Shown piece after piece: positions 1,901 to 57,297 of a DNA stretch of 64,000 nt (positions within the stretch are counted from its first letter, which is position 1; every line of letters begins with the position of its first letter). Source of the stretch: Cetorhinus maximus (lineage: Eukaryota); contig NC_135881.1 of the NCBI RefSeq assembly GCF_964194155.1, positions 35,278,001 through 35,342,000 of the forward strand, written 5' to 3'. The notes under the pieces were generated by a model. The model searched no databases, had not been told where the DNA came from, and saw only the letters and a list, made by a program, of their open reading frames with translations. A program made the translations under genes and the position numbers.

Positions 1901-2042
1901 AGAGATGTAGGGTCAGAGAGAATTCAGTAAGGAGTGTAGAGATTACAAACAAAAAACTACTGCGGATGCTGGAAATCCAAAACAAAAACAGAATTACCTG
2001 GAAAAACTCAGCAGGTCTGGCAGCATCGGCGGAGAAGAAAAG

Positions 2043-2081
2043 AGTTGACGTTTCGAGTCCTCATGACCCTTCAACAGAACT
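2043..2081 (-). ncRNA. Minimal type I hammerhead-ribozyme-like motif in a Penelope pLTR
   Basis: AGTT-CTGTTGA-A-GGGTC-ATGAG-GACTC-GAAA-CGTC-AACT; stem I AGUU/AACU, stem II GGGUC/GACUC. Confidence 0.7.
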
Positions 2082-2678
2082 GAGTAATATTAGGAGAGGG
2101 GTGAAATATAAGCTGGTTTAAGGTGGGGGGGGTGGGGGGAGAGAAGTTGGGGGGGGTGGTGGGTGGTTGTAGGGACAAGCAAGCAGTGATAGGAGCAGAT
2201 AATCAAAATATTCAGTCTGGAAGGCTGTAAAGTGCCTTATAAAGTGCCTTTACAGCCTTCCGGACTGAATATTGAATTCAACAACTTTAGATCTTGAACT
2301 CCCTCCTCCATCCCCACCCCTTATCCATTTCTTCCCCCTCCCTTTTGTTTTTTCCAATAATTTATATAGATTTTTCTTTTCCCACTTATTTCCATTATTT
2401 TTAAATCTATACCTTTAATGCCCTGTCAGTCTTTCCACCCCACCCCCACTAGAGCTGTACTTTGTGTGTCCTGCCATCCATTCTTAATTAGCACATTCTC
2501 TTAGATAATATCACTACCCTTCAACACCTCTTTGTTTTGTTCCTTTGTCTGTGACATCTTTTGATTATCTGCTCCTATCACTGCTTGCTTGTCCCTACAA
2601 CCACCACCCCCCCAACTTCTCTCCCCCACCCCCCCACCTTAAACCAGCTTATGTTTCACCCCTCTCCTAATATTACTC

Positions 2679-2717
2679 AGTTCTGTTGAAGGGTCATGAG
2701 GATTCGAAATGTCAACT
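2679..2717 (+). ncRNA. Hammerhead-like motif, mutated copy
   Basis: AGTT-CTGTTGA-A-GGGTC-ATGAG-GATTC-GAAA-TGTC-AACT. Confidence 0.6.
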
Positions 2718-2988
2718 CTTTTCTTCTCCGCCGATGCTGCCAGACCTGCTGCGTTTTTCCAGCTAATTCTGTTTTTGTGTAGAGATTACAGCCTTTTACA
2801 CTAGTTGGGACATGTTCTGTATATTCCCTGTAATTCTACTTCACCTCACCCTTTTAACATAGTCTTTTATTTCTTATGCCCTCATGCTTTTCCCTTAATT
2901 CACCTGAATAGCAGCTATGCTATTTGCCTCAGGTACTCCATATAGTTGCAACTTTCACATTCTAACTGCTCTTCCTCTAATATGATAA

Positions 2989-3147
2989 GGGGTAATTTGC
3001 ACCTTCACCACTACAACAGAGTAGTTCAATTGCCCATTTCAGAACTCACTCGATTTACATTTTAATTGAAACGAAAGGAACTGAAAATCAGGCAGATTCA
3101 ATAGTGGGCTGCTTTATTGGCAAAAGGTGAAGGTGGGAATTGCTTCC
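2989..3147. mobile_element. Small MITE
   Basis: Imperfect TIRs GGGGTAATTTGCACCTTCACC / GGTGAAGGTGGGAATTGCTTCC; TAA on the left flank. Confidence 0.5.
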
Positions 3148-3789
3148 TTCATCAGCTATGTAGCACTCATTTTGCGGGTGCGACCTGACCTATGTTAGTC
3201 CCACTTTAGTCAGAGGAGCCGGTGAGAGGAGGACCCTGAGACAGGCAGTCAGTCCAGTCTGTGGCTCCAGAGCAGACCAACCACGTCCTGAGAAAAATCT
3301 AGTGTGATGCCCCAGGAAAACAAGTAGTTGATTAGCTTGAAGCTCTTGCAGCTCGTGCAGATGACAGTGAGGATTTACCTGGGAGTTGGGGAGGTGGCAG
3401 ACCTGCGTGGAACCAGTCTGGAGCGGAAGGATATAAATCGGGGGCGAGGCTCGAGGCCTGCACTCAGGGCCTTCTATGGGGGATGCGGGGTTTGGGGCAA
3501 ATCACACTCTGTGGCACCACATCCACCCCCCTGCCATAACATTTCTGAACAAGCTTCCTCTGAAGGCTGGGACCAGAGCATGTGTTTGAAAAGGAGCACC
3601 AGCAGCATCCCAACTACTGATGATTCAGTTACAAGCACATACTGCGCTATTGACTGTGATGACTGCGCCACATGTAAAATTACACCCTGCTTCCAAGGCT
3701 GAACATAATGGTTGGCTCTCCTTTTGTTAAGGGTTCCGTTATAACATTTTTGCTAACACACCCCGCACCCCAACTGGAGAAAACTTTAA

Positions 3790-3931
3790 GGCCGGAGTTT
3801 TCCTGCCCCTCACGCGGGTGGGATCTTTCGGTCTCGCCGATGTGAACGGAGGTTTCAATGGCTCGCTGGCCCCGCCATGGGGGAATCCGCTGCGGGTGGG
3901 TGGGGGGGTAGGGCGCTGGAAAATTCCGGAC
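3790..3931. mobile_element. Harbinger-type MITE
   Basis: TIRs GGCCGGAGTTTTCC / GGAAAATTCCGGAC; TAA TSD at 3787-3789 and 3932-3934. Confidence 0.7.
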
Positions 3932-4445
3932 TAAATGTCGGAGTGAGGACATTCACTGCATTCAACTTTATTTTTAAAACTACAGACGCGATGCAATAAA
4001 CAATTTGACCTTTTTTAAAAATGACTATCTTCCGATGTTGATCAAATGTTAGCTGAAAATGCATACTGGAAGGTAAAATAAGAAGTGGGGGATTTAAATT
4101 GCCCGGGACCGTAAATAAACACAGCAAGTGAGTGACTTAGCCTGCAGGTCAGATGCCATGTGCTATATGCTTTAAAGGCGTTAACTAGTTCGGAATAGAC
4201 CCCAAAGCGCGGGGCCTGAGACAGTCACTTACTAGCTGCTCTGCCTACACTTACATGGGAATCGGAGAGGGATACCAGTCAGCTTCTTGGGTCGGCGTGC
4301 GCTGAGTTTGAAGGAAGAGTGAATAAAAAAACAGTGGCATCACATCAGAGTCATAAGCCAATTGGTCGGTGAGTATCTACTGTCTGGGTCTGTGTGCAAA
4401 TAGTTAGATTCATGCACTACTTTTAGGAAAGGTGTGTAAATAGCT

Positions 4446-5468
4446 GGATTATAGGGTCAGTACTTGGGCCCCAGCTGTTTGCAATCCAAGTCAATGATTT
4501 AGATGTGGGGACCAAATATAATATTTCCAAGTTAGCCGATGACACAAAACTAGATGGGAATGTGTGCTGTGAGGATTCAAGGGAATTTAAACAGGCTTAA
4601 AAAGTGGTCAAGAACACATGGCAGGTGAAATAAAATGCGTGTGAGTGTGAGGTATCCACTTTGGTAGGAGGAATGGAGGTGTAGAGTATCTCTTAAATAT
4701 TGAGAGTTTGGGAAGTGATGATGTCCCAAAGGGACCTGGGGGTCCTTGTTCATAAGTCACTGAAAGCTAACATGCAGATGCAGCAAGCAATTAGGAAGGC
4801 AAATGGTATGTTGGCCTTCATTGCGAGGGGATTTGAGCACAGGAGTAAAGATGTCTTGCTGCACTTGTATAGAGCCTTGGTGAGACTGCACCTGGTGTAT
4901 CGCATACAGTTTTGGTCTTCTTACCCAAGGAAGGACATCCTTGCCACAGAGGGAGTGCAGTACAGGTTCGCCAGACTGATTCCTGGGATGGCGGGATTGT
5001 CTTATGAGAAGAAATTGAGGCAGTATTCTCTAGCGTTTAGAAGAATGAGAAATGACTTCATTGACACTTACAAAATTCTTAAAGGGCTAGACAGGCTAGG
5101 TGTAGAAAGGATGTTTCCCCTGGCTGTGGGGTCCAGAACCAAGGGTTGGGGGGGAGGTAGGGGGGTGGAGAGGGTGGTCTCAGAATAAGGGGAAAGCCAT
5201 TTAGGACTGAGATGAGGAGGAATTTCTTCACTCAAAGGGTGGTGAATCTTTGGAATTCTCTAACCCAGAGGGCTGCAGAAACTCAATCATTGAGTATGTT
5301 CAAGACAGTGATCAATAGATTTCTAGATACTAAAGACATCAAGGGATATGGGAATAGCATGGGAAAATGGGTCCTGAGGTAGACGATCAGTCATTATCTA
5401 GTTGAATGGAGGAGCAGGCTCGAGGGGTTAAATGGCCTATTCTTGCTCCTATTTTCCTATGTTCCAAT
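4446..5468 (+). mobile_element. CR1 LINE, 5'-truncated (RT C-terminus and 3' UTR)
   Basis: SKLADDTKL near 4527; ORF 4700-5188 has RDLGVLVH, LYRALVRLHL, LEGVQ-like motif; CR1 tail CCTATTTTCCTATGTTC. Confidence 0.9.
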
Positions 5469-6329
5469 ATGGCGGGCTGGAAGTGCACAGGCAATTCTGG
5501 TCGAAGATGTGGGTCTTTGCATTGGCATCAGGAGCAAACATCAGGAACATTTAAAGGAGGAAATAGTTGGAATTTTCTCAAGTCCAGGGTTGTCCCGCTG
5601 CTGGGATTGAAAGCGGGGACCCAATCCCACACTGCTGGGCAACGAGCCCCGGATGACATTTTACCGGTGCCAGCCAATTAAGAGGCAGCCGTCAGGGTCA
5701 CTGTCCAATTAAGGACGCCTCCCAAAGCTGCCGACCCAATCTGAGGGCTGGCAGATCAGCAGCCTTGGCAGGCTCACCAATAGAGATATGGTCATTGCTG
5801 AAGCTGCAGGAAGAAGAAGAGGGCAGCTCCATGCTGAACTGCCCTCGAAGGCCACTAATGTCTTTTTATTTACTGTGCCGGGACCAGGCAGGCAGGCAGG
5901 GGTGAACCCCAATACATGAGCTATGGGGTGGTCATAAAGGTGGGGCCCCCACAACACTCCCGGGAAAGTGCTGGGAGGCTGTTAATGTTTATTTGGCAGT
6001 CTCCTCACACACGGTGGCAGCCCCTCCCAATGCTGGTAAAATGATGGAGGGGGTGGGAAGTGGCCCTTAATTGTGCACTCAGTTATTTCAATTGGCTGCC
6101 CACCATCAGTCAGTGGGCAGCTGTGTCACTGTGGTTCCTGCCGTCAAAGGTGGGGAGATATGGGCTCCCCTACTGACACCTTCTGCCACCATTTTATGAG
6201 GCCTCCCACCTCAAAGCCCATCTCCGGGAGGCTGATAAAATCCAGTTCATTGTATTCAAATTAGTGTCCCGTGTTCTGAATGCCCCATGCTTTGATATTT
6301 AAAGGGACAATGCAAGAGTTACAGGTCCG

Positions 6330-7095
6330 TTGTTGGTTTATCTTTTCAGGCTGCCTTAGAAATAATTCAGCCACATTGGCCTGTCTTCGGGGCTGGAGGA
6401 TGAGCGGGAGCAGGAAGGAAAACACCACAGAGTAGTAGCAGCTGCCAGAAGAGGGAAGAGACAGAGTTCACTGCGGAGAATGCCAGACCCACAGCGAGCA
6501 CTGCTGCTGCATTAATTTTCCCCAGGAACAATGACAAGAACTTAACTCTGCATTCACTGCCACAGGGTTAAAATTGGGCCCATTAATAAATGTCTCAGGT
6601 GTCTTTGATTCACCAAGGAGGCTGGCACTTGCTGCAGCCACAAGTCTGTCTCAAGCTAAGGTATGGACAGCACTGCATATGGCTGACAAGGTAACGGAAA
6701 CCATTATGACAAGCTCTTTTCAAGCTGCAGTGTGGCATAAGTGACATCTCCCAGTTTTCAGTCCATTGTTGTATCAGGGAGCATTAGGCTTCGCCAATAT
6801 TGGAGATTTCCTCAGTCTGCAAGGTGCCACAGACTGCACCCACATTGCCTAGTGAGCTCCCTATCACCTTCCCGGTATCTTTCTGAAAAGAAGGGAATTC
6901 CACTCAGTGCCCAACTTGTTCGCAACCACAGGCAATTCTGTGACTGGTTTCCTGCCAGCAATCTTGGCATATTCAACCTGTACCAGCCTTTGTGCCGCCT
7001 TTATTCCAAGCATGGCAACAGGTCACAGACTGACTACTGGGCGACCAGGGCTATCACCGTCAGACATGGTTCATAACTCCTGTCAGAGACCTGGG
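6330..7095 (+). pseudogene. PIF/Harbinger DDE transposase remnant
   Basis: Frameshifted motifs DISQFSVHCCIRE, GFANIGDFLSLQGATDCTHIA (cf. GFP.VQGAIDCTH) and LLGDQGYHRQTWFITPVRDP (cf. LLGDKGYPL..WLMTP). Confidence 0.8.
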
Positions 7096-7209
7096 CATGG
7101 CTGTGGAGGTGGGCAACAAAGGTGCCACCAGAAATGTAGAAAATCAGCAGGCACAAGCTTGGGGGGGGCGGTGGGGGGTGGGGGGTGAAAGGCTGCTGAG
7201 CTTCAATTG

Positions 7210-7320
7210 CAAATACACAACTGTGGCTACATTTCACAAGTACTTCATTGGCTGTAAATTGCTTTGGGGTGTTCTGAGGCTGCGAAAGATGATACATGAA
7301 TGCAAGTCTTTCTTTCTTTT
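7210..7320 (+). mobile_element. DeuSINE/L2-type 3' tail fragment
   Basis: AAGTACTTCATTGGCTGTAAA...ATGAATGCAAGTCTTTCTTTC, similar to the tail at 45780-45860. Confidence 0.55.
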
Positions 7321-9262
7321 CCTCAAAGTCTTCTCTGCTCCAGTGGAAATAATCCTAACATTGTGATCTCCTAACTTTCTGGCATTACCCTGATGAATTA
7401 ATGCTGTACACACGCCATGCTTAATTCCAGATGCCAGCTCCTGTGCACTTCACTTGATCAGCATAGAGTATTCCACATTGTGGAGCTGTAACAATTTGAT
7501 ATGACCCTAGTTGTCTTTTGTTTTAAGTCCAGTTTATGACTGTGATGTTTCTGGGAATGACCCTGTGCCTTGACCAGCACCAAACTGAGGATGAGATATG
7601 ACTCCTCAGCCATGCATCAAGGCCAAATATTTCCAAATGCATGAAAGCAACGTGGAGCATGGTTTAATCCCAATGCATACTTCGATGGCTAGCCAGGAAA
7701 ATGTTAGCCCAGGCTTTTGCACACTTCAGGTTCCACACTCCTAGGCTACCAAAATCCGATTAAAGTGGAAGCAGCTGATGATTTAAATGGCCAGCTGCCT
7801 CCGTTAACGTGCATGCATGAAACGTGCCCTCCCCCACATCCCTGTCCCCAGCAAAAGGGGAGCGGGACTTAACGATTTTCGGCCAGTTCTACTATTTTCA
7901 CTACAACGGAGAGGCTTTCTGTTGTGGTGAAAGTCTGGGCCGTTATCCTTGTGTTAGAATGGATCTGATTTTCTCTGAACTCCATCATAAATCTTTATAC
8001 TGCAGCTATTCAGCAAATTCAAATTAAGTCAAACCAATAAAAACCAGTTGACAGAAACACCTTTTAGGTAGAGCTGATACACTGCCACATTTTTGCCATT
8101 GTTGTTTGCATGAACGTGGCAGTGAAAGAAATTACTACAGTGCTGCAGTAATAAATCAATAACTGAGGGAAATATATTTTAACTGGATTGGGACTTCATA
8201 TTTAAACCCTATCCTTACATGAGGAGGTGTAAATGCATGTTTAGTGTTAACACAAGGCCATTCCACCCAATAGGTCTATGCTGTTTATGCCCATCTTACC
8301 TCATCTAGCCCCAGCAACATATCCTTCCAGAGCTTTCTCCCGTGTGTGTTTACGTAATTTCCTCTCAAATGCATCTATGCTAGCTGTCTCAACTGCTCTA
8401 TGTGGTACTGATTTCCACACTGAGTAAAGAGAAAGTCAATCAGAGGGAGCTTTTCATTTAGAAATTCCACACTAAGGTCCAGTAGATCCCAGGGAGTGGA
8501 TTGTGCTTCAATGTTCTAAAGAGCATTTCATCACAATCTTTCAAACGAGCAGGAAATATTACTCTAAACTGAATTTACAGCTAGTAAACAGTGTGAGAAA
8601 AAAACATACAACCCTTCCCTAATGTTAAACAGATCAATAAGTGTTTAATTTAAAGGCCTTTTAGCAATAAAACACTGACTACTCCCACAGAGCACACAGC
8701 ATGGGCTTTTATCTTTTGATTGGTTACTTGCTTGAAATAAGAAAACAGCCTGCACAACACCGAATGTTTCACTTACTGAATTTCTCATTCAGCTTCTCAT
8801 AAAAAGCTGATTGCTGTTTTCTTTTCCACGCAGGACAACATTTCAATTGTGAAAATTGGGCCAGCTCTCAGATGACCTGAAGGTTGAGTCGATGAAACAT
8901 TAAATCATGTTTTCCGGAATGTTTTTGCAATTCAAATGGAAGTGCCGGAGCTAGATTTTGTGTAGAGCATTTGGGCTGATAACGTGGTTGTCAGCACCAT
9001 TAGTTATGCTGTGCATTGGGTAGCTGCTCCTCATATTCGGCCTAGGCCTGAGGCCTACTCAGCCTCCTGCATGGACAGCAAATGCTATGCCCTGCACACT
9101 TCTGTAAGGCTCAGAGCCTGCAGGTGTGTTGTACACAGCACTCCTGAAGGTCTAAAACAAAAATAAAGAGCTAAGCCCAAAATACAATCAGATTCCTCAA
9201 AAGCAGGGTTTTCCATGGTGAGCACTCAATAGACAGTCATGGGAAACTTTTTCTCTCTCAGT

Positions 9263-13515: not shown

Positions 13516-14505
13516 TATGAACAAGCAAACAGACAGAATGGAGTAGGGCATTCGGCCCCTCGAGCCTGCTCCGCCATTCGATAAGCTCATGGCTGATCTC
13601 TTTGTTTCGAGTTCCACATTCCCATCTACCCCTGATAACCTTCGATTCCCTTGCCTAACAAGAATCTACCTACCTCCACCTTCAAAGTATTCAATGACCC
13701 CCGTCTCCACTGCCTTCTGAAGGAGAGAGTTCCAAAGTCGCACAGCCCTCTGAAAGAAAAAAATTTTCCCTCATCTCTGTCCTAAAAGGGCGACACCTAA
13801 TTTTAAAACAGTGCCCCCTATTTCTGGACTCACCCACAAGAGGAAACATCCTTTCCGCATCCACCTTGTCAAGTCTGTTCAGGATCTTATATACTTCAAT
13901 CAAGTCACACCTCATTCTTCTAATCTTCAGTGGAAACAAGCCCAGTCTGTCTAACCTTTCCTCATAAGACAACCCGCTCATTCTAGGTATCAATCTAGTA
14001 AACCTCCTCTGAACCACCTCCAACTCATTTACATCCTTCCTTAAATAAGGAGGCCAAAACTGCACACAGTATTCGAAATGAGGTCTCATCAATGCCCTGT
14101 ATAACTGAAACATAACATCCTTACTTCTATGTTCAATTCTTCTCATAATAAAGAATAGCATTCTATTAGCCTTCTTAATTACTTGCTGTACTTGCATACT
14201 AACTTTTTGTGACTCATGCACTAGAACACCTCGATCCCTCTGCACCTCAGAATTCTGCAGCCATTCTCCATTTAAGCAATACTCTGCTTTTTTTAATCCT
14301 TCCTGCCAAAGTGAACAACTTCACATTTTCCCACATTATACTCCAAATGCCAAATTTTTGCCCACCCACTTAACCTATCTATATCTGTCTGCAAGCTCCT
14401 TATGTCCTCTTCACAATGTACTTTCCTACCTACCTTTGAGTCATCTGCAAATTTAGCTGCCATACCTTCACTCCCCTTATCTAAGTTATTGATAGAAATT
14501 GTAAA
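13516..14505 (-). mobile_element. CR1 LINE 3' part
   Basis: ORF 13691-14245 (LYRALMRPHFEYCVQFW, LEVVQRRFTR); KFADD near 14440; CR1 3' UTR. Confidence 0.9.
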
Positions 14506-20599: not shown

Positions 20600-22725
20600 A
20601 AAGCCTAGATTGGTGTTAAAGTACATGTATGTGAATGCACAGAGAGTGGTAACTAAAATTGGTGAGTCACAGACATAGCCATGTGGAAATATGAGGTTGC
20701 AGCGATAACTAGAGACCTGCCTCAAAGAAGGGTATGACTGGGTAGTAAACATTCCTGGATATAAGATGTTCAGGACAGATAGGAAAGGAGGAGGGGTGAC
20801 AGTATTAATTAAGGAAAATATTTTGGTGCTGGAGAGAAAGGAAATCCCAAAGGATCAAGGACAAAATCTATTTGATTAAAGCTAAGGGGGAAAAAAAGGT
20901 GCAATTATATTGCTCAGTGTAGTCTATAGAGTACCAACTAGCGGGAAACAAGTTTGCAAGGAAATTAGAGAAGTGCCAGAAAGAGTTGATATAATGGGGG
21001 CATTTAATTAGCTGAATATTAGTTTGGGATAGTGATAGTATAAAGGGCAGAGCGGGATAATAATTCCTAGAGTGTGTACAGGAGAATTTTCTACAGCAGT
21101 ATGTTTCCAATCCAATGAGAAAGGAAGCATTGTTGTACCTGGGCTTGGGAATGAGGTGGGCAAAGTGAATCAAGTATCAGTAGGGGAACGTTTAAGGGAT
21201 AGTGATCATTGTATCCTAAGGTTTAGGTTGACTATGGAAAAGGACAAGGTGCAACCCAGAGTGAGAATAATTAACCAGGGGAAATTAAAGCCATCTTCAA
21301 TGGGGGTAAGAATGCATCTGGCCCAGATAAATTGGAATCAGAATAGTCGGCAGAACAGTAACTGAATAATGGGCTGTCTTTAAAAAAGAGAGTTTAAGTT
21401 TAGTTAAGGTATATTCCCATGAAGGGGAAGGTAGGGCAAACAAAACTGAGCTTCCTAGATGACGAATGAGATAGAGGTTCAGATGAAACAGAAAAAGTAT
21501 GCTTATGACAGATGTCAGGTAGATAATACAACTGAGAAACAGGCTGAAAATAGTAGGTTCAGAGGGGAATTGAAAAAGCAAATAAGAAAAGCAAAGAGAG
21601 GGCATGAGAAGAGACTGACAGCTAATATAAAAGGGAATCCAAAAGTCTTCTACAGGTATATAAATAATAAATAGTTAGAGCTCATGAAATAAAAAGGACA
21701 GTGGCAACATGGATACAAAATTGGCTGAGTGACAGGAAAGAAAGAGTAGTGTTAAATAGGGGTTTTTTTTGGACTGGAAGCAAGGTTTATAGTGGAGTTC
21801 CTCAGGAATCGGTGTTCGGACCTTTGGTCTCCCTAATATATATTAATGACCTAGACCTTGGTGTACAGGGCACAATTTCAAAATTTGCAGACGAAATGAA
21901 ACTTGGAAATATTGCGAACAATGACAGGGATCGTGCAGAACTTCAAAAGGACATAGGTTGTGGAATGGGCAGGCAAATGGCAACTGAAATTTCATGCAGA
22001 GAAATGTGAAGTGATACATTTTGGTAGGAAGAACGCAGAGAGACAATATAAAGTAAGGGATACAATTCTTAAGGAGGTGAAGGAGCAGAGGGACCTGTCT
22101 GTATATGTGCACAAATCACTGAAGGTGGCAAGAGAGGTTGAGAGTGTGCTTAATAAAGCATACGGATTCCTGGGTGTTATCAATAGGGGCATAGAGTACA
22201 AAAGCAAGGAAGTTATGTTAAACCTGTATAAAACACTGGTTCAGCCCCAGCTGAGGTATTGTGTCCAGTTCTGGAAAGGTTGTAAAGGCATTCAAGAGGC
22301 TGCAGTAAAGATTCACAAGAATGGTTCCAGAGATGGGCGACTTCAGTTACATAAATACATGGGGGAAGTTGGGATTGTTTCCCTTGGAGAGGAAAAGGGT
22401 GAGAGGAGATTTGAAAGGAGTATTCAAAATCATGAGGGATCCCAGAATAGTTGGGGGAAAAATGTCCCCATTGGTGCAAGGATCAAGAACCAAAGGGCAT
22501 AGATTTAAGGTAATTGGTAATTGGTTAGGATCTGGAATGCACTGTCTGAGAGTATGATTAAGGCAGGGTCAAGTGTGGCTTTCAAAAGGGAATTGGATCA
22601 TTATTTGAAAAAGAAAGATTTGCAGGCCTATGGGAAGTGGCATGAGGCAAATTGCTCTTTGAGAGCCAGCCCAGACATGATGGACAGAATGGCCTCCTGC
22701 AGTACTGTAATATTTCCATGATTCT
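20600..22725 (+). mobile_element. CR1 ORF2 remnant (APE endonuclease to RT), internally deleted
   Basis: YVNAQ, ITET-like and LRDSDH endonuclease motifs; KGNPKVFYRYI; SGVPQESVFGP, SKFADE, KCEVIHFG. Confidence 0.88.
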
Positions 22726-24684: not shown

Positions 24685-26090
24685 GGTTGCAGTTGGTGGC
24701 TGAAGCAGGTAGCAGGTATCAGTGAGGAGGTCCTTACTGAAATACATGGCATCTCCTACTTATTCCTTGCTGAGGTTCAGGTAGGAGAGTTGCTTCCTGA
24801 ACACCCTGGGTGCATCCTGGGAGCCCCCTCTCCTGCCCACTTCCTTCGTCTTCTCGCAGCGTGTCCTGCTCTGTGTGGCCTCGGTCCATTCTCCAAGTCA
24901 TGCTGCATTCATGGGGGATGTTTATGAGTGCATCTATGTCTGGGAGCAACTGGTTTGTGCAAAAGACCTGAAGTAAGCAAAAAATTCTTAAGCATCTACT
25001 ACACCACTCCCTTTAGATTTCCACAACTTTAAATAACTATAGAAAGCAGCAAACATTTGTACAATCAAAAGAGCATCCACAAGAAATCAATGATAACCAG
25101 CCAAGTGCTTGATGATCCTTAAATTACACTGGTGGGGAGTCCTTCCTGTTGCTGTTTAAGAGAGGGCATTAGTTTCAGCATGGAGCTCCAAAATAGCATT
25201 GCTGACATCAACTGACGTCAGGATTTGTCTGCTCTGCATACTGCCGTAACCATAACCCTGTTTATCCCCTTCAAGTATTTATCCATTTCTCTTTTGGATT
25301 TGCTACTGAATCTGCTTCCACCAAACTTTCAGGTGGTGGATCCCAGATCACAACACCTCACTGAGTAAAAAATGTTGCCTCATGTCACCTCTGGTTCTTT
25401 TGCTATTCACCTTAAATCTGTGCCGTCCGGTTATGAACACTTCTGCCGCTGGAAATAGTTTCTCTTTATTTGCTCAGTCAAAAGCATTCAGGGTTTTGAA
25501 AACCGCTATCAAGTTTCCTCTTAACCCACTTTGTGCTGAGAAACCCTAGCTTCTCCAGTCTCTCCACAAAACTGAAGTCCTTCATCCCTCGTACCATTCC
25601 AGCAAATTTCTTCTGTACCCTCTCCAAGGCCTTGTCATCCTTCCCAATGGTGCCCAGAATTGAACATAATACTCCATCAGAGGACTAGCCAGTGTTTTAT
25701 AAAGATTTGGCACAACATCCTTGCTTTTGCACTCTATTCCTTTTATTAATAGAGTATGCTTTAACTGCCTTGACCAGCCACCTTTGATTTGTATAATACA
25801 CCTCCAGGGCTCTCTGTTCCTGTACCCTCTTTAAAATTGTGCCATTTAGTTCATGTTGCCTCTCCTTTTTCTCCCTACCAAAATGTATCATCTTAGACCT
25901 TTCTGCATGAAGTTTCACCTGCCATGTGTCTGCCCATTTTACCAGTCTGTCTATGTCTTCCTGAAGTCTGTTGCTATCCTCTTCATTGTTAAATACATTC
26001 CCAAGTTTCATATCATCTGTGAACTTTGAAATTATATTCTCAATTCCAGGTTATTAATGTATATCAAAAGACCAGTTGTCCTCATACTGA

Positions 26091-26249
26091 CAGAAGCGAA
26101 AAACTGTTGACGCTGTAAACAGGAAATAAAAACAGAAAACACTGGAAATGCTCAACAGTTATGGAAGCACCTTTGGAAAGAGAAACATTTCTCCACAAAT
26201 TCTGCCAGGCCTGCCAAAGTATTTCCAGCATGTTCTGCGTTTAGTTCCA
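26091..26249. mobile_element. Old miniature Penelope fold-back
   Basis: Inverted pLTR 3' ends; 7-bp TSD ATACTGA (26084-26090, 26250-26256). Confidence 0.6.
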
Positions 26250-26531
26250 ATACTGATACCTGGGGAATACCACTTCCCCCAGTTTACCATTGTTCTCTGC
26301 TTTCTGTCCTTTAGTCAATTTTGTATCCAGGCTGCCACTATCCCTTTAAACCCATAACCTTCAATTTTGGTAACAAATTTATAATGTAATATGTTACTAA
26401 ATGCCTTTTGAACGACCATATATGCATCAACCGCGCTACCTTCAACAACCCTCTTTGTTACTTCAAAGTCCTTGATCAAGTTAGTCAAACAGGATTTGCC
26501 TTTAACAAATCCATGCTGACTTATTCATTTT

Positions 26532-26742
26532 CTTCACAAACAAAAACAGAAAATGCTGGGAAAACTCAGTGGGGCTAACAGCATCTTTGGAGAGAAAAAC
26601 AGAGTTAACATTTCGAGTCCATATACGGACTCGAAATGTTAACTCTGTTTTTCTCTCCACAGATGTTGTTGAACCTGCTGTGTTTTTCCAGCATTTTCTA
26701 TCTTTGTTTCCGATCTCCAGCATCCGCAGTATTTTGCTTTTG
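26532..26742. mobile_element. Miniature Penelope fold-back with its apex at hammerhead stem II
   Basis: 33-bp perfect inverted repeat 26588-26620 / 26627-26659; TSD-like TATTCATTTT at 26522 and 26743. Confidence 0.8.
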
Positions 26743-26749
26743 TATTCAT

Positions 26750-27175
26750 TTTTTCTATTCATTCATGGGCCCTGGGCATCGCTGGCTAAGCCAGCATTTA
26801 TTGATCATTCCTAATGGCCCTTGAATTGGTGGTGAGTTGCCTTCTTGAACAGCTGCAGTCCATGTGGTGTAGGAACACCCACAGTGCTGTTAGGGAGAGA
26901 GTGCAGGATTTTTACCCAGCTGTAGTAAAGGAATGGCAATATACTTCCAAGTGAGGATGGTATGTGTCTTGGAGGGGAACTTGCAGGTGGTGGTGTTCCC
27001 ATGCATCTGCTGCCCTTGTCCTTCTTAGTGGTAGAAGTCACATGTTTGGAAGGTGCTGTCAAAGGACCATTGATGAATTGCTGCAGTGCAACTTGTAAAT
27101 GGTACTCACTGCTGCCACTGTGTGTTAGTGGTGGAGGGAGTGAACGTTTAAGGTGGTGGATTGGGTGCCAAATGG
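26750..27175 (-). mobile_element. HER1-like LINE 3' end
   Basis: Homologous to 1-390 and to the reverse complement of 20160-20500. Confidence 0.8.
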
Positions 27176-30100: not shown

Positions 30101-32190
30101 AGCAACGAGCCTTAACAAGCTCTTTAAGGAGCTTAACAGGCCATTAACTGGTGGTGAGTGGGTTTCCCATTCCCTCCCCACTGCAAAAAACTTTGAAAAT
30201 TACAAACTCTCCCGGAGGTTGCAGGACCTAGTGCCATCCTCTCCCGAAACCTAATGTTCAATTTTACCCGCATTCGCCAACACCTCCTCCCTGCAATTGC
30301 AAATCCAAGCCAATGTGTCTATGTGTGCTGGCCCAACATGAATCCATGTCCTCAGAGGTGGGAGAGAAATGAACTCAGATTGTAGAAGAATTAGTATCAC
30401 ATGGCATGTATATGTCCCAGCTTTCTATTCAGGCTTCAATGCATTAGCCTATATTAATGATTTATATTAAAGTAATATAACTACTTAACATGCTCAATCT
30501 TGAGATTTCCTTCATTTTTATTTAGAGCACTGTAATGTCCAAGAGATTGAAAATCATAACTGACAATTCCACTGCAAGTCCAACAGCTTTATTAGCAAAA
30601 AATTAAACTTAAAAAAACAGTTCGGAGTGATTTAGAACATGCAGCTACCCCCCTAGTTCAGACTAGGTTGACTGCAGGTCAATTGGATATAATCTGAGGA
30701 CTGACCCTGCTTTCAGTAGAACCTGTGGATGGTTACGCTCCAATGATCCCGTATCGATGAAGGTCTTTGACCATTCTTTATATTTTGGCTACGCAGCCAC
30801 TGCCTCATGCCCGATCATTCTGAGCCCCTTGATTGGTCTCCGGGGTGTGTGATCAGTCTTTGATTGACCCATGTCCCAGTGGACTTAGTCCATATATAGT
30901 TTATTTTTTCACGTGATCCTCCTACAGGTAATTGATTAGCCACAGGATATCTGGCCTTCCTGTTGTTGCTTCAAGTCCTTACTTGTTTTCGCAAATGGTT
31001 GTGCGACTGCCCATGAGTCACGAGGCATCCGCATGTATCAAAGGTACACAACCACAGCAAGCTCCATCAATAAATGGTTCACGGTCAAATTGAATCTGGA
31101 GCATTCTTTTTAGCAAACTTACACAGAAGCTCTTAAGCATATTCCTACTGCACTTAACTGAACAACCCAGAATGACCTCACTTTTGTGCGTGTGTGTACA
31201 TCTGCTTGTCTGCAATTGTGCAACAAAGCAATCATTACCTATGCCGAAATATTAAATCGTTACAATTTTGCCATTGTCTTTTTAACAACCGTATCAATCA
31301 CCCTGCAGATGACCTTGTGTAGTCTGCATGTCATGGCACGCTAGGAGCATCCTGCCCCTCCAATTAAAGTTTGCCTACACCACAGAGTGATTGTACTATG
31401 ACATAGCTACACTGGCCTCACAATTGATGGACTCTTTGTAGGGTTGCTCTGCATGCATCTAGAAGCAGTACTTAAGCATCTGAGAGGGCTGTTTTAATGA
31501 ACAAATGTAATTAATAAAAGATATAGCCTCCCTTTATTGGGTTAAAAGGTGGAATATTGTTGGGGATATCTGAGAGGAAGGGAAAGAGAAAGGGAATGAT
31601 AGAATGTTGGTTTTTGTTTTTGTTTTAAATTTCTGGGCTTGATGGGAAGACACCTGGAAAGGTGGGAAAGATGTTTATTTTTAACAATGATTTCATGTTG
31701 GTTTTGCGGTACAGCACAGTCATAAAAGCAAGATATTTCAACATAAGCAGGATATGTATTTTTAAAAACAGCAGATATTAATGAGTTGGTTACCCAATTC
31801 CCAGGCTTGTGGCCCAGGCATTTAATTGGGCACCTTTAGAACAGCAGAAGGTGCAACAAAAGTTTGATGGGATGAAAACGCAGCCTGCAATGTTAGCATA
31901 TCAACACGATGTTCCTCAATTTCCTGAAAGTTATGTTAATATGCTGATTTTTAACGCAAAAGATAAAGGAAATGCTCATACAAATTATGTCAGTTCCTAC
32001 TCCAAGCACAAGTTTCCCCAATCTATTGTGCCGATTCAATGAAACCTCCACAGAAACCCTCTACCTCTCTCTCACATAGCCCCACCCCTTATGCAGCAGA
32101 GCAGAGAAAACAGGTTTTTTGCATTATAAACAAAAACAAAAGTACCTGGAAAAACTCAGCAGGTCTGGCAGCATCTGCAGAGAGGAACAC

Positions 32191-32229
32191 AGTTAACGTT
32201 TTGAGTCCGAATGACCCTTCAACAGAACT
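32191..32229 (-). ncRNA. Hammerhead-like motif, G12 mutated
   Basis: AGTT-CTGTTGA-A-GGGTC-ATTCG-GACTC-AAAA-CGTT-AACT. Confidence 0.55.
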
Positions 32230-32592
32230 AAGTAAAAATAGAAGAGAGGTGAAATATAAGCTGGTTTAAGGGGGGGTGGGACAAGTAGAGCCAGTGATAG
32301 GTGGAGATAACCAAAAGATGTCACAGACATAAGGACAAAGAGGTGTTGGAGATGGTGATATTATCTAAGGAATGTGCTAATTAAGGGTAGAAAGCAGGAC
32401 AAGCAAGGTACAGATAGCCCTAGTGGGGGTGGGGTGGGGGGAAGGAATCAAAAAAGGCTAAAAGGTAGAGATAAAACAATGGATGGAAATACATTTAAAA
32501 ATAATGGAAATAGGTGGGAAAAGAAAAATCTATATAAATTATTGGACAAAAAAGGGGGGGTTCGGAAAAGGGGTGGGGATGGAGGAGAGAGT

Positions 32593-32922
32593 TCATGATC
32601 TAAAGTTGTTGAACTCAATATTCAGTCTGGAAGGCTGTAAAGTGCCTTGTCGGTAGATGAGGTGCTGTTCCTCCAGTTTGCGTTGAGCTTCATTGGAACA
32701 ATGCAGCAGGCCAAGGATGGACATGTGGGCATGAGAGCAGGGTGGAGTGTTGAAATGGCAAGCGACAGGGAGGTCTGGGTAATGCTTGCGGACAGACCGA
32801 AGGTGTTCTGCAAAGCGGTCACCCAGTCTGCATTTGGTCTCTCCAATGTAGAGGAAACCGCATTGGGAGCAACGAATGCAGTAGACTAAATTGAGGGAAG
32901 TGCAAGTGAAATGCTGCTTCAC
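32593..32922 (-). pseudogene. Penelope GIY-YIG endonuclease fragment
   Basis: NLVYCIRCSQCGFLYIGETKCRLGDRFAEH...HFN...H...RKLEEQHLI...LNIE. Confidence 0.9.
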
Positions 32923-32989
32923 TTTAAAGGAGTGTTTGGACCCTTGGACGGTTTAACTGGCTCTACTTGTCCCACCCCCCCTTAAACCA

Positions 32990-34015
32990 GCTATGCCTGT
33001 ATCTTTATGGGGTATGTGAACATTCCTTGTTCCAGTCCTACTCCGGCCCCCTCCCACAACTCTTTCAACAGTACATTGATGATTACTTCGGTGCTGCTTC
33101 ATGCTCTCGTCTGGACCGTGAAAAATTTATTAATTTTGCTTCCAATTTCCACCCCTCCATCATTTTCACATGGTCCATCTCTCACACTTCCCTTCCCTTC
33201 CTTGACCTCTCTGTCTCAATTTCAGGTGATAGACTGTCCACCAATATCCATTACAAGCCTACCAACTCCCACAGCTACCTCGACTACAGCTCCTCACACC
33301 CCACTTCCTGTAATGACTCCATCCCATTCTCTCAGCTCCTTCGCCTCCGTCGCATCTGTTCTGATGATGCCACTTTCAAAAACAGTTCCTCTGACATGTC
33401 TTCCTTCTTCCTTAACCGAGGTTTTCCACCCACGGTGGTTGACAGGGCCCTCAACCGCGTCCGGCCCATCTCCCGCACATCCACCCTCACACCTTCCTCT
33501 CCCTCCCAGAAACAGGATAGGGTCCCCCTTGTCCTCACTTATCACCCCACCAGCCTCCACATTCAAAGGATCATCCTCCGCCATTTCCGCCAACTCCAGC
33601 ATGATGCCACCACCAAACACATCTTCCCTTCACCCCCCCGGCGGCATTCCGCAGGAATCGTTCCCTCCGGGACACCCTGGTCCACTCCTCCATCACCCCC
33701 TACACCTCAACCCCCTCCCACGGCACCTTCCCATGCAACCGCAGAAAGTGCAACACCTGCCTCTTTACTTCCGCTCTCCTCACCGTCCAAGGGCCCAAAC
33801 ACTCCTTTAAAGTGAAGCAGCATTTCACTTGCACTACCCTCAATTTAGTCTACTGCATTCGTTGCTCCCAATGCGGTTTCCTCTACATTGGAGAGACCAA
33901 ACGCAGACTGGGTGACCGCTTTGCAGAACACCTTCGGTCTGTCCGCAAGCATTACCCAGACCTCCCTGTTGCTTGCCATTTCAACACTCCACCCTGCTCT
34001 CAATCCCACATGCCC
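32990..34015 (+). pseudogene. Penelope RT C-terminus, Cys linker and GIY-YIG, frameshifted
   Basis: QYIDDYF, LPFLDLSV, HYKPTNSHSYLDYSSSHP, SIPFSQLLRLRRICS; CNRRKCNTC linker in a shifted frame; VYCIRC..C...YIGET. Confidence 0.9.
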
Positions 34016-34210
34016 ATTAGGGCTATCTGTACCTTGCTTGTCCTGCTTTCTACCCTTAATTAGCACATTCCTTAGATAATATCACCACCTTCAACACCTC
34101 TTTGACCTTTTGTCTGTGACATCTTTTGGTTATCTCCACATATCACTAGCTCTACTTGTCCCACCCCTTCTTAAACCAGTTTATATTTCACCTCTCTTCT
34201 ATTTTTACTT

Positions 34211-34249
34211 AGTTCTGTTGAAGGGTCATTCAGACTCGAAACGTTAACT
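34211..34249 (+). ncRNA. Hammerhead-like motif
   Basis: AGTT-CTGTTGA-A-GGGTC-ATTCA-GACTC-GAAA-CGTT-AACT. Confidence 0.7.
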
Positions 34250-34719
34250 GTGTTCCTCTCCGCAGATGCTGCCAGACCTGCTGAGTTTTTCCATGTATTT
34301 TTGTTTTTGTTTTGGATTTCCAGCATCCACAGTTTTTTGCTTTTATTTCGGCATTATACCAGCTCTGAAACAGTTCTGCAAATTAATACCCAGTATTATG
34401 GGCACAGTAGAACTCAAAGTCGTATTCCTGATGCTTCATGGGCAGAGGAGTGGTGGTTATTATATTTTTTTTTATTTCTCTTCAGGGCGAGCTACACTAT
34501 TTTTCTGTAATGTTGAATGCATTTTTATAGAAGTAAAATGAGTTACATTAAAAATGGAAAAACTATTTTTTTATAAGATGCTGCGCCTCAAATACATAAA
34601 TAATGGTTTGATGGCTTCAAACTTTAACTGTCATACGTAAAGGGAGACTTAAAGGGGGTATATGGGACAGGCTGCACAGTTTTATCAGGCCCTGATTGGG
34701 TGTACTTTTTCTGCTTGTT

Positions 34720-51690: not shown

Positions 51691-52049
51691 TTCCTCCCCC
51701 TTTACTTTTGTTTTACCCTCTTATTTACAAAAAATCTTAACCCATATTAAATGTAAAATATACAGTTCATGCCATTATAAATTTAGTCTTTGAGGAAGTT
51801 TTTAGATTTGGGTAGAGCGACGCAACTCTACAACTGGAAGTTCTTCCACTGGATCGACTTGCACAGGAACTGCAGCTTCAGGGACATCCCTAGACAATGG
51901 CCGTTCAGAATTATTTATTTCAACAGAGACATCAGGTATGTCTATCCTTTGTCGATCTGGCACCTCAGGTGTCGAAGTTTCAACTTCGATTTCAGGTGGA
52001 CTAACTGATTTTTGGAGTGTTTCTCAACTTCTGAGATGATCCACATGTT

Positions 52050-54650
52050 TCCTAACAATCCTGTTTTCCACTTCTACCTGATAAGATAAAGGTCCTGTTT
52101 CAGAGACGATTGTATCAGGAACCCATCTCGGCCCAGTTGCAAAATATCGTACAAAAACTGTCTCTCCCACAGTAAACTCTCGACCTTTACTGTGAACGTC
52201 ATGATTTACTTTCTAACACCCCTGGTTTCTCTCCGCCTTCCCCTCTAAATTAGGGAATACTAGACTCCATCCCATATGAAGCCGATGCTTCATTAACAAT
52301 CCTGAATGTGTTAAACCAGTGGGTGCATGAGGAGTTGTGCAATAGCTGAAAGGGAAGCTTGAAATTTGTGTTTCTAATTTCCCTCTGATAGTTTCTTCAT
52401 GCTGGTTTTAAAGGTTTGTACTGCTCTTTCTGCCAAGCCATTAGGCAAGGGATGGTACGATGCTGTTCTGACATGTTTAATCCCATTTAGGTTCGCAAAT
52501 CTTTGGCATTCAGTGCTAGTGAAAGCCGTAACATTGCCTAACACAATAACTTCAGGTAAAGCACGAACACTGAAACTCTAGCACTGTTTTTCAATGATTG
52601 CAGACAAAGTGGGTGATCTCACTTCAAACACGCCTATCCATTTGGGATGTGCGTCAATAATTACGCGAAACATGGTACCTAGAAATGGATCTACATAGTC
52701 TATATGTAGTCTCACCCAGGGTCAACCAGGGCACTCCCACGGATGCAGTGGAGCTGAAACGGGCAACTTCTGCTGTTGCTGGCACTGGAGACAGTGCATC
52801 ATCATTTTTTCTATATCATTGTCTATACCTGGCCACCAGATATACCTTTGTGCGAGTATCTTCATTTTTGAAATACCTGGATGCGCACTATGAAGCTCTT
52901 CCTTGGACAGAGATAACAGCTCTTGCTCCCCATAACAAGATACCATCTTGACAACTCAGTTCGGATCTATATATAAAGAATGGATTCAATTCTTCAGGAA
53001 CTTGTGCATTTGACCATCCTTGTAATACTTGTTCACGACTCTTGCTAAAATTGGATCTCTATTTGTCCAATTCTTTATCTGTCTCGCTCAGACTGGTGAG
53101 GAGTCCAGGAAACTTAATGCAAGTACTACCCCTTGAGGTACATGTGTAATACTATTGGGCAAAGGGAGACGACTGAGAGCATCTGCCTTTGCTATATGCA
53201 CACCCGGACAGTGTATAAAAGTGTACTCATACGCCGACAAAATTAAAGCCCATTTTTGAATTCTTGCAGAAGCTATTGGTGGAATTGCCTTTTCACTGAA
53301 CAACCCTAACAATGGTTTCTGAACTGACACCATGGTGAAGTGTCAACCATGTAAATATTGATGGAAATTCTTTCCAAATGTGATAGATGAGCCCTCTTTT
53401 TCAATTTGCGATTAACCTTTCTCAGCTGTAGAAAGTGTTCTGGATACATATCCTATCGGTCTTTCAGATCCATCCTCCATCTTTTGTGGCAATACTGCTC
53501 CCACTCCGTAGGGAGATGCATCACAAGTGAGTATCAATTCCTCAGATGGGTCATAACAGACATGACGAGTGTAAAAGTTTCTTAACTCTAGTGAAGGCTT
53601 CCTCTTGCTGTGTCTTTCAGGACCATCTTTGGTTCTTCTTCAGTAATAAGTGTAAAGGGGCTAACATTATAGATAGATTAGACTGTAATAATTTACCCTG
53701 CCTAAAAAAGACTTGAGCTCCGTGATGTTGGTAGGAGAGGGCGCTTCCTTGGTTGCTCTGACTTTCTCCTCTAATGGATGCACCCACTCAATGACCCAGA
53801 TAAGCAACTTCCTTTGCTTGGAAGGTGAACTTTTCTTTTTTTTAAATGAACACCAGCCTCTAAAGATCTCTTTCGAACCTCTTCCAGGTTTGCTACGTGC
53901 TCTGCTTCTGTGGATCCTGTGATTAGGATGTTATCCAGGTACACTATAACTCGGGGGAGTCCTTGTACTAAGCTTTCCATGGTTCTCTGGAAAATCGCAC
54001 AAGCAGAGGACACGCTGAAGTGTAGGCCTGTGTACTGATACAGGCTCTTGTGCGTGTTTATGGTGACATAACTTCTTGATGTGTTGTCCAACTCAAGCTG
54101 CTGAAACACTAGACTCATGTCCAGTTTAGTGTAGGATCTTCTCCCTGTGAGTTTAACATCTTTGGGATTACACACTTGTCAAATTTCGCAGCCTTGTTTA
54201 TCATTGATTTATAACCCCCACAGATTCGAATGGTTTGGTCTGGTTTTAGCACAGGGACTATGGGTGCTGCCCATTCTGAAAATTGGACTGGCTGTATTAT
54301 TCCTAACTTTTCCAAACAAAATAATTCCGCAATTAACTTTTCACCTAGAATGTGAGGCACAGACCTTGTCTTAAAAAACCGGGCTGTTGCTTCAGAGTCC
54401 ATGTATATTTTAGCTTGCAGACCGTTGATTTTCCCCAGCTCATCTCAGAATACTCTGTCATATTTTTTCAGCAACTCTGGAATTCCTCCTGTCCTGATCA
54501 GAAAAATTTCTGTCCAGTTTAATTTAATTTCTTTCAACCAAACAGGTCCTTCTTCACCTGTTACAACAATAATTGGAAGTTGAGCTGTCTGTTGCATGTA
54601 TGATACAGGTACAGGGGTGATGCCTTTCACGTTTATTGCTTCTCTTGTAT
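52050..54650 (-). pseudogene. pol: Gypsy pol remnant (RT, RNase H, integrase)
   Basis: FSEWAAPIVPV, YLDNILI (cf. YLDD), CDAS, ADALSRLP, LHSAHPG...CLQCQ zinc finger. Confidence 0.88.
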
Positions 54651-56220
54651 AAAAGCAAAAAAACTGCGGATGCTGGAAATCCAAAACAAAAATAAAAATA
54701 CCTGGAAAAACTCAGCAGGTCTGGCAGCATCTGCGGAGAGGAACACAGTTAACGTTTCGAGTCCGTATGACTCTTCAACAGAACTAAGGGAAAATAGAAA
54801 AGAGGTGAAATATAAGCTGGTTTAAGTGGGGGAGTGGGGGGGCAGGTAGAGCTGGATAGAGGGCCAGTGATAGGTGGAGATAGCCAAAAAATGTCATAGA
54901 CAAAAGGACAAAGAGGTGTTGAAGGTGGTGATACTATCTAAGGAATGTGCTAATTAAGGGTAGAAAGCAGATCAAACAAGGTACATATAGCCCTAGTGGG
55001 GGTGGGGTGGGGTGAAGAGAAGGGATCGAAATAGGCTAAAAGGTAAAGACAAAACAATGGATGGAAATATATTTAAAAATAATGGAAATAGGTAGGAAAA
55101 GAAAAATAGAAAAAAAAGAAAAAAATTACTGGAAAAAAAAGGGGGATTGGAAAGGGGGTGGGGATGGAGGAGAGAGTTCATGATCTAAAATTGTTGAACT
55201 CAATATTCAGTCTGGAAGGCTGTAAAGTGCCTAGTCGGAAGATGAGGTGCTGTTCCTCCAGTTTGCGTCGAGTTTCACTGGAACAATGCAGCAGGCCAAG
55301 GACGGACATATGGGCATGAGAGCAGGGTGGAGTGTTGAAATGGCAAGCAACAGGGAGGTCTGGGTAATGCCTGCGGACAGACCAAAGGTGTTCTGCAAAG
55401 CGGTCACCCAGTCTGCGTTTGGTCTCTCCAATGTAGAGGAAACCGCATTGGGAGCAACGCATGCAGTAGACTAAATTGAGGGAAGTGCAAGTGAAATGCT
55501 GCTTCACTTGAAAGGAGTGTTTGGGCCCTTGGACGGTGAGGAGAGGGGAAGTAAAGGGGCAGGTGTTGCACTTTCTGCGGTTGCATGGAAAGGTGCCGTG
55601 GGAGGGGGTTGAGGTGTAGGGGGTGATGGAGGAGTAGACAAGGGTGTCCCAGAAGAAACAATCCCTGTGGAATGCCGCCGGGGGGGTGAAGGGAAGATGT
55701 GTTTCGTGGTGGCATCATGCTGGAGTTGGCGGAAATGGCGGAGGATGATCCTTTGAATGCAGAGGCTGGTGGGGTGATAACTGAGGACAAGGGGGACCCT
55801 ATCATGGTTCTGGGAGGGAGAGGAAGGTGTGAGGGTGGCGCGGGAGATGGGCCGGACACGGTTGAGGGCCCTGTCAAACAGCGTGGGTAGAAAACCTCGG
55901 TTAAGGAAGAAAGAAGACATGTCAGAGGAACTGTTTTTGAAAGTGGCATCATCGGAACAGATGCGACGGAGGCGAAGGAATTGAGAGAATGGGATGGAGT
56001 CCTTACAGGAAGCGGGGTGTGAGGACCTGTAATCGAGGTAGCTGTGGGAGTCGGTAGACCTGTAATGAATATTGGTGGACAGTCTATCACCAGAAATTGA
56101 GACCGAGAGATCAAGGAAGGGAAGGGAAGTGTCAGTGCTGGACCATGTGAAAGTGATGGAGGGGTGCAAATTGGAAGCTAAATTAATAAATTTTTCCTTT
56201 TGCCTTTGGATTTTTAAATT
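54651..56220 (-). mobile_element. Neptune-type Penelope element inserted in the Gypsy protease region
   Basis: RT ORF 55504-56169 and GIY-YIG ORF 55178-55507; degenerate 15-bp TSD TTGCTTCTCTTGTAT / TTGCTTGTCCTGTAT (54636-54650, 56221-56235). Confidence 0.92.
54747..54785 (-). ncRNA. Hammerhead-like motif
   Basis: AGTT-CTGTTGA-A-GAGTC-ATACG-GACTC-GAAA-CGTT-AACT; stem II fully Watson-Crick paired. Confidence 0.72.
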
Positions 56221-57297
56221 TTGCTTGTCCTGTATATGTTTTTAACTGAGCAGTGGTTTTCTCCAAACTCAATGGCTGGGTACCTTCTCTGAGGTATTTA
56301 AGGATGTGTTCTCCCACCACTGCGATCAATGCTCCTGTGCCCACCTCCATGAGCAGCGGTTTTCCATTTACTTTAAAGGTAACAGTGGTTGGTTCAGTTT
56401 TCCTGGCCTTCAGATTGTGTAGGGAATAAACGTCGGCTTCAGTAACTTCTGGCTCATCCATATTGTGCACTTCATTTAACTTGACCTGAATGGTTGTCTT
56501 GATCGAGTTCTGCACTGTTTAACAACATGCCCTTTTTTGTGGCAGTAGTGGCATTCTGCCTCTTTAAATCTACAGACTTCAGGTGCATGATTTCCCCCAC
56601 AACGGTAATGCTTTAACTTCTGGGTTACTGGTGAGCTGCTTCCAGCATTTACTTTTATTTTTCTGGCGGTAGGGACAGTGTTCCACTTCATTTTACCCTC
56701 CCTGATCTTTTGCCATGCCTGGCAGCAGGTTCCTGCCCAGCTGCAAAATGGAGCCCTGTTGCACACTCTTGCAAAGCTTGCGAGTCCCTCTCAGCGCTCT
56801 CCATTGCGAGCTCTATCTCCATGGTGCACTTCAGGTCTATCTCAACTTCTGCATGCAAACAGTGCTGAATGGCTTGTGGCTTATGCTGTAAACTAAATCA
56901 CCTCGCAACATGCTGTTTAAAGTATCACCAAAGTCACAGTGCTCCGTTCTCTGTTTTGACTTCGCAATGTACATTGCGATTGACTCACTGGGATTCAGGT
57001 GTCAGGTGCCCTTATTCGAGAATTACACTTGAATCTTTGCATGATCACAGAGGGTTAAGGCTGAAAATGTCCTTTCACAAGGTAAACTAACTCGGTGAAG
57101 GGTCTGCAATTTGGCGCGGTTGGAGCCATCAAGCTATGGATCAAGCTATAGGTTTTGCTCCTGCAGACACATGGGAGAATTGCCTTCCATTTCTCCTCAG
57201 CCATTATTTCATTAGCTACAAGGTAGAAGCCTAATTGCTCAACGTATTGACTCCAAATGGATGAGTCATAATTGTCAATTCTGCCAAAGTGAGGCAT
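56221..57297 (-). pseudogene. gag: Gypsy gag-protease remnant
   Basis: MPHFGRIDNYD...WSQYVEQL; two CCHC-type knuckles (YRCGGNH...C; CHYCHKKGHVVKQC); MEVGTGA (decayed DTG). Confidence 0.85.

Follow-up and report, generated by a model that had tools for sequence, protein, structure and literature searches.

Inverted arms of a Penelope-like element in Cetorhinus maximus strictly pair a long with a shorter end, probably through twin priming on one RNA

How does a retroelement come to carry its own 3′ end, in inverted orientation, at both junctions of a single insertion, and why does one of these ends run further than the other? The question arises from a 64,000-nucleotide stretch of the Cetorhinus maximus genome (contig NC_135881.1, positions 35,278,001 to 35,342,000; hereafter the window), in which a preliminary description had placed four inverted insertions, each bounded by a target-site duplication (TSD) and composed of one long and one short arm. 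All four were recovered, with exact TSDs of 14, 7, 10 and 8 bp. Copy 1 (1948..2776; TSD 1934-1947 and 2777-2790) carries the long end on its left, minus-strand arm and the short end on its right, plus-strand arm. Copy 2 (26091..26249; TSD 26084-26090 and 26250-26256) is an old, diverged mini fold-back, too diverged for pipeline pairing, with the long end on the left and the short end on the right as assigned by eye. In copy 3 (26532..26742; TSD 26522-26531 and 26743-26752), a mini fold-back of an older subfamily, the short end lies left and the long end right. Copy 4 consists of a minus-strand left arm (32129..32952) with the short end at 32129 and a plus-strand right arm (32953..34350) with the long end at 34350; its true TSD is 8 bp (32121-32128 and 34351-34358), a place where the automated script chose another repeat. 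Counted from the first base 3′ of a conserved 18-nt anchor, which lies upstream of the U tracts, the long and short ends fall at +53/+16 in copy 1, +53/+27 in copy 3 and +58/+20 in copy 4, giving offsets of 37, 26 and 38 nt.

Copy 5 (54652..56220, minus strand) is single-armed and 5′-truncated, with the long end on the left and a filler of about 23 nt on the right. Its 16-bp TSD (54636-54651 and 56221-56236) has two mismatches and is perfect in a nearby duplicate. The long end described earlier for this copy stands, and the T-rich piece at the other junction is present, but it fits neither the short nor the long tract specifically, because the nearby duplicate differs there by 7 nt. Decayed RT-bearing repeat fragments, which we take to be CR1/L2-like and LTR-like, are also dense in the window (4697-5188, 13691-14320, 21957-22502, 58521-59926 and 53771-54178; three confirmed as RVT_1).

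The source of the arms has the organization of an endonuclease-positive (EN+) Penelope-like element (PLE), with reverse transcriptase (RT) plus a GIY-YIG endonuclease at the C terminus, both within one open reading frame (ORF). A 691-aa frame at the sampled locus L092 matched RVT_1 (E 6e-5) and then GIY-YIG (E 0.003), both below the Pfam cut-offs. At E ≤ 1e-30 it had 1499 homologues out of 7989 candidates; among the matches listed, many carry annotations for both RT and GIY-YIG, and the closest named proteins belong to sharks and rays (63-72% identity). The DKG motif is present in L282. Within the window, the right arm of copy 4 joins a piece of the pLTR to the C-terminal part of the ORF and lacks about 280 nt internally, near 34015; a plus-strand frame at 33605..34063 contains the RT-EN linker and a GIY-YIG fragment (PF01541) that scores 22.4 bits, just below the cut-off of 22.6. 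Full-length units at L107 and L282 show the partial-tandem arrangement pLTR-ORF-pLTR in a 3.3-kb unit, and the optional 30-40-nt tail with an inverted 5′-truncated copy, typical of EN+ PLEs, was likewise found. According to the text of PMC8557442, a zinc-finger-like CX2-5CxxC linker between RT and EN marks the Neptune/Nematis clade and is absent in Penelope/Poseidon. The CX4CxxC linker in copy 4 and L092 thus points to a Neptune/Nematis-type element rather than Penelope/Poseidon, an assignment by sequence motif that embraces both clades without separating them. A PDB sequence search gave no match, and a homodimer prediction for ORF residues 28-168 returned a score of zero, with the fold itself uncertain and modelled without an alignment, which makes it uninformative on binding.

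Upstream of both end sites lies a candidate minimal type I hammerhead-like motif with a variant core, judged against the description in the text of PMC4209133 (34215-34246 and 2683-2714 on the plus strand, 2046-2077 and 54750-54781 on the minus strand). A conserved core position was changed (U at position 6) in 213 of 257 arms and 7 were canonical; an Rfam search of copy 4 gave no match. The centre of copy 3 coincides with helix II of this motif. In the pLTRs of L107 and L006, a pyrimidine tract followed by AG sits right at helix I and resembles the intron end of D. virilis Penelope; the 57-nt stretch spanning both U tracts in these pLTRs starts with GT and ends with AG, a putative splicing signature. 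In L107 and L282, the upstream direct pLTR continues across the tail and on into the ORF; the first ATG of this ORF is found about 36 nt beyond the long end. Both end sites precede this ATG, and since the RNA continues beyond the long end, both correspond to internal RNA positions.

To describe the pairing of ends beyond the window, we sampled the 4.0-Gb genome. Thirty loci were obtained with a query containing the long end; this set is biased and was kept separate together with its extensions. Another 150 loci came from five queries upstream of both ends, with best-scoring matches favouring young copies, and 60 longer extensions of loci were added. We also scanned 600 kb of arbitrarily chosen contiguous DNA, including 200 kb adjoining the window. 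In total, 383 unique arms were obtained, of which 197 were long and 172 short, while 9 ended further upstream and 5 read through; across them, the tail score was bimodal, at 16 or less in 180 and at least 28 in 189. TSDs were called at a score of at least 9, a threshold that mismatched flank pairs passed in 3 of 120 trials. Head-to-head candidate pairs numbered 83, or 82 after one segmental duplicate was dropped. L053 and L116, about 1.07 Mb apart on contig C1, share an identical fold-back and TSD and represent a segmental duplication.

TSDs bounded 70 of the 82 candidates, and every one of these 70 fold-backs joined a long to a shorter end (66 long/short, 4 long/upstream-of-short). A class-blind TSD search that used no long or short windows retained 61 of the 82, all long/short, and nine additional units from other passes follow the same rule, which holds across young, middle and old subfamilies. 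Random or symmetric arm endpoints had been named beforehand as the outcome that would speak against it; the TSD-bounded fold-backs sampled show neither. The 12 candidates that lacked a TSD comprised 8 with unequal ends (7 long/short, 1 long/upstream) and 4 with equal ends (3 short/short, 1 long/long). Of these four, L121 and L174 are neighbours from different subfamilies. The others, an inverted long/long junction with arms 96% alike (L100, 969-3099) and an inverted short/short junction (L242, 1321-2294), could be exceptions to the rule or recombination products. At L281, a long arm is joined to a read-through arm, again without a TSD.

In single-armed copies either end occurs: among TSD-bounded examples from the unbiased sets, 16 were long and 21 short, a tally apart from 58 other direct single arms that had no TSD within 60 nt. 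Were the two ends of a fold-back chosen independently, about half would be symmetric. None was among the 57 that came from loci chosen without regard to ends (P ~2e-18), and since singles use either end while all 57 unbiased pairs are asymmetric, independent choice is rejected. This coupling is strongly non-random, and the fold-back shape itself is structurally known.

The ends were further characterized by position. Long ends lay at +49 to +62 in 62 of 70 fold-backs and short ends at +12 to +27 in 61 of 70; the remaining short ends included six upstream of the U tract and widened the overall spread to -25 to +27. This supports the earlier statement that the element's 3′ end forms each junction, at one of two preferred positions and with strict pairing, but the two sites are not equally defined, the short one being broad. 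End positions were indistinguishable between fold-backs and singles for short ends (median 18 vs 17, KS p 0.46) and long ends (54.5 vs 53, KS p 0.76), which points to both being starts of reverse transcription. Priming by pairing to the U tracts, as originally proposed, found little backing: in young copies, primer-template overlap averaged 1.8 nt at 48 long ends and 1.3 nt at 45 short ends (~0.8 in permutations), with none at 12 and 17 of these ends, respectively. An RNA fold in which a loop would hold the short site, and the long site would follow a stem on its 3′ side, is unproven. Its 9-bp stem was 91% paired but showed no covariation beyond that of shuffles (52/500; fold z -1.1), and RNAalifold gave a different, weak structure.

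TSDs measured 13-15 bp in 55 of 70 fold-backs by maximal match, with a mode of 14 bp. A purine stood 3 nt outside the TSD on both flanks (51/63 and 60/63 fold-backs; control 0.49-0.57); positions -1 and 0 were ignored, as they are biased by the TSD definition. The same half-site occurred on both flanks, and likewise in single-armed copies. Together with the fixed stagger, the symmetric half-sites suggest that one enzyme specificity cuts both strands.

Terminal inverted repeats and TSDs might suggest that the hairpins, MITE-like in the preliminary description, move as whole units, or else arise by recombination between separate insertions, a class to which the TSD-less L100 and L242 could belong. 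The centres argue otherwise. Among 37 young centres, 13 showed overlap, 4 were blunt and 20 held filler or mismatched the reference, and no junction recurred. Dispersed copies of one unit were not seen among them, which makes it likely that each hairpin arose where it landed. Furthermore, a single TSD brackets both arms in 70 cases, and the inverted repeats at the ends are imperfect, with an offset of about 35 nt. The present sample already contradicts movement of whole units or recombination, the least credible account of the hairpins. They resemble MITEs and non-LTR retrozymes in being small and non-coding, with terminal inverted repeats or a hammerhead motif, but differ in having no recurrent unit and no tandem arrays at their sites. 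The fold-backs are likely by-products of an autonomous element.

Arm lengths at the centres further separate the possibilities. Of 63 simple centres, 19 had the long arm extending further 5′ and 22 the short arm (by up to 1.9 kb), while in the other 22 the two agreed within 20 nt. The near-symmetric class exceeds the 4.5 expected, partly as an alignment-boundary effect in old copies, and remains in excess in young, long copies (7/35 vs 1.2 expected). In the published reading (PMC3846280), an antisense transcript primes itself and builds a head-to-head palindrome before integration, which suits those centres that are palindromic. With 41 of 63 centres asymmetric by more than 20 nt, with outer ends at RT starts beside endonuclease-type half-sites that it leaves unexplained, and with sense RNA as the in vitro template in the text of PMC11167929, we consider this origin very improbable. 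Two other features, a pile-up of 5′ ends at unit position 3176 and a minor cluster where the hammerhead would cleave, could not be told apart from alignment boundaries in diverged subfamilies and were set aside.

Partner arms also share sequence variants. Of 30 young pairs, 26 were long enough for this comparison; the partner arm ranked among the best 10% of relatives at 15 of the 26 loci. Of 137 rare variants, 25 were common to both partner arms (1.7 expected), spread over 12 of the 26 loci, and diagnostic sites agreed at 242 of 288 (153.5 expected), with 46 in disagreement. An earlier doubleton statistic (20/43) was dropped after a rerun with other settings proved to be dominated by one locus (8/9). 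Arms overlapped in nearly all pairs. The exceptions, L112 and L276, carry tail-only arms that start about 5-6 nt downstream of the partner's short end. Short arms or tail-only pieces were separately noticed within the AT-rich 3′ region of other PLE copies (L017, L195, L201 and L175:7845-7883).

Strict pairing together with shared variants indicates one template with two sites, and this coupling is best explained, with good but incomplete confidence, by twin priming, in which both nicked target strands prime on one RNA. The PLE protein, probably as a dimer, would nick both strands about 14 bp apart. Synthesis from one 3′-OH would begin just beyond the distal U tract (+49 to +62), and synthesis from the second at the proximal tract (+12 to +27), some 35 nt upstream; both starts would be set mainly by position, with 0-4 nt of pairing. 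The trailing RT would then either stall at the leading primer, leaving a tail-only arm, or displace the leading cDNA and produce overlapping arms, and the two cDNA ends would be joined through microhomology or filler. Failure of one primer would leave a single-armed copy bearing either end. The tail-only arms of L112 and L276 look like such stalls. Overlapping arms mean that leading cDNA must be displaced, an activity that twin priming thus presupposes and for which we found no report for a PLE RT in the literature consulted. Most single copies join directly or via unrelated filler; the idea that every single copy has a mini inverted arm was discarded, as few do (L030, L052, L111 and perhaps L261). 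The original suggestion that both strands are primed at two sites survives as the best fit, by inference, while its pairing to U tracts does not.

Several observations count against twin priming or are shared with other routes. The TSD-less rule-breakers L100, L242 and L281 do not follow it, six of the 70 short ends start upstream of the U tract, and the 46 disagreeing diagnostic sites are a further difficulty. The excess of near-symmetric centres is also a prediction of snap-back. In that route, a single cDNA primed at the long site would form a hairpin with itself, and DNA synthesis would run back along it in the direction of its start until it halts close to the short site, the point at which the second strand is joined on; later deletions at the unstable palindrome centre would then trim either arm. 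Such copying accounts for strict long/short pairing and shared variants, and for centres that coincide with natural hairpins, hammerhead helix II among them; shared variants do not discriminate one RNA from DNA copy-back or later gene conversion. An extra deletion would nevertheless be needed for each of the 22 of 63 centres with a longer short arm. Clean TSD-bounded short-only copies, 21 in number, share the end distribution of fold-backs; had they also folded back, short/short products would be expected, and none was seen with a TSD. The symmetric centres of L197, L165 and L294 hold filler unlike the natural upstream sequence, and extended loci of at least 6 kb showed no inverted copy of flanking DNA longer than 150 nt. 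We therefore regard snap-back as unlikely.

Two RNAs, one on each protein subunit, could also be primed if an asymmetric complex forced one long and one short start. Such dual priming, defined alongside twin priming in the text of PMC2837659, was proposed there for L1. It would give overlapping arms without strand displacement, and the minimal hammerhead, thought to act as a dimer in the text of PMC4209133, could pair two RNAs. Yet free choice of ends by each RNA is rejected by the pairing counts, and rare variants shared far above random pairing require both RNAs to come from one source. A single RNA also agrees better with the correlated 5′ truncation points and with tail-only arms ending where the partner begins. 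On balance, priming on two RNAs appears rather improbable, a little more so than snap-back.

Copy 5 adds a structure of another scale, as it forms the outer end of a 12.6-kb palindrome. The left arm (54682..60498) contains copy 5 and 4.3 kb of other DNA; the right arm (61190..64000) continues 3.26 kb past the window, to L131:3261. The arms are 91-99% identical and enclose a loop of about 690 nt (60499-61189). The far breakpoint lies at +19, the median PLE short site; the chance of a breakpoint within a 16-nt window of 5.8 kb is 0.3%, a post hoc figure. The palindrome has no TSD. In genome searches, its junction and unique host part were found only at these two places, with no distant source, and no second case of this kind turned up in the 664 kb of contiguous DNA. 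The right arm alone also houses a later long/short fold-back (L131:524-790), whose centre is a perfect palindrome and whose TSD measures 13 bp; this argues against an assembly artefact. The palindrome is a candidate for local 5′ transduction, in which the short site of a read-through transcript would have been primed with deletion of the target; DNA-level fold-back repair is the alternative. Elsewhere in the sample, a 1.5-kb inverted pair with 94% identity lies about 27 kb apart (L167:2693-4230 and L170:1049-2582).

How much of this is new? A 30-40-nt tail on one of two inverted pLTRs had already been described (PMC3846280 and the text of PMC8557442), and two RT starts were reported in vitro in the text of PMC11167929, so the two-site rule cannot be claimed as novel, as the preliminary description had done. 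The legend of Fig. 2 in PMC8557442 draws the EN+ PLE unit with inverted pLTRs plus tail and calls its mechanism undefined. For Pen2a_Av (PMC3846280), and in the text of PMC8557442, the shape is treated qualitatively and ascribed to antisense self-priming or endonuclease resolution, whereas here it was counted (70/70). TSDs are described there as 8-10 bp, shorter than the mode of 14 bp in the present family, which also has a symmetric target motif.

The text of PMC11167929 (Frangieh 2024) reports for PAc, a Poseidon element of Anolis carolinensis, that two RT starts bound the tail in vitro and that both strands are cut and extended. As in the present family, initiation is internal, at two tail-bounding sites downstream of the hammerhead, with little primer-template homology. 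The PAc starts, however, lie in an AC-rich stem-loop 111-118 nt inside the ORF, whereas ours are U-rich and precede the first ATG of an element with a Neptune/Nematis linker. These in vitro data support twin priming from a Poseidon element with each strand measured in bulk, a design that cannot show coupling; inverted copies, TSDs and strand coupling are not discussed in the main text of that paper. Similar to L1 twin priming in the text of PMC2837659, both target strands prime and the inverted, TSD-bounded product has a centre closed through microhomology or by end joining. The second primer of L1, however, anneals at an internal position and leaves two inverted fragments free of overlap, whereas the second start in the present family keeps a distance of about 35 nt from the first, with arms whose overlap can extend to kilobases. 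The mechanism works like twin priming but not in its L1 form.

Among the papers listed by searches of the open literature, we found no pairing count and no application of twin priming to PLEs, although Pyatkov 2004, Arkhipova 2006, Evgen'ev and Arkhipova 2005 or the supplementary figures of PMC11167929 may already bear on the pairing or the model. What appears new is the strict coupling, with quantitative support for coupled priming, and not the shape. With these counts, what had been a qualitative remark becomes a rule that can be tied to the two start sites seen in vitro; the origin of PLE inverted repeats and of the one-sided tail is stated as an open problem in the text of PMC8557442. It is possible, and we propose it tentatively, that coupled double priming is the normal mode of PLE integration: a symmetric two-subunit enzyme would cut 14 bp apart and set two RTs on one RNA about 35 nt from each other, the trailing one displacing the leading cDNA. 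Singles, tails and fold-backs would all be outcomes of this process, and short-site priming on a read-through host transcript would have built the 12.6-kb palindrome. The 600 kb of arbitrary DNA contained 57 arms, which extrapolates crudely to some 400,000 per genome. If the proposal is true, PLE integration would routinely involve two reverse transcriptases sharing one RNA, and shark-like genomes would be seeded with palindromes in the process.
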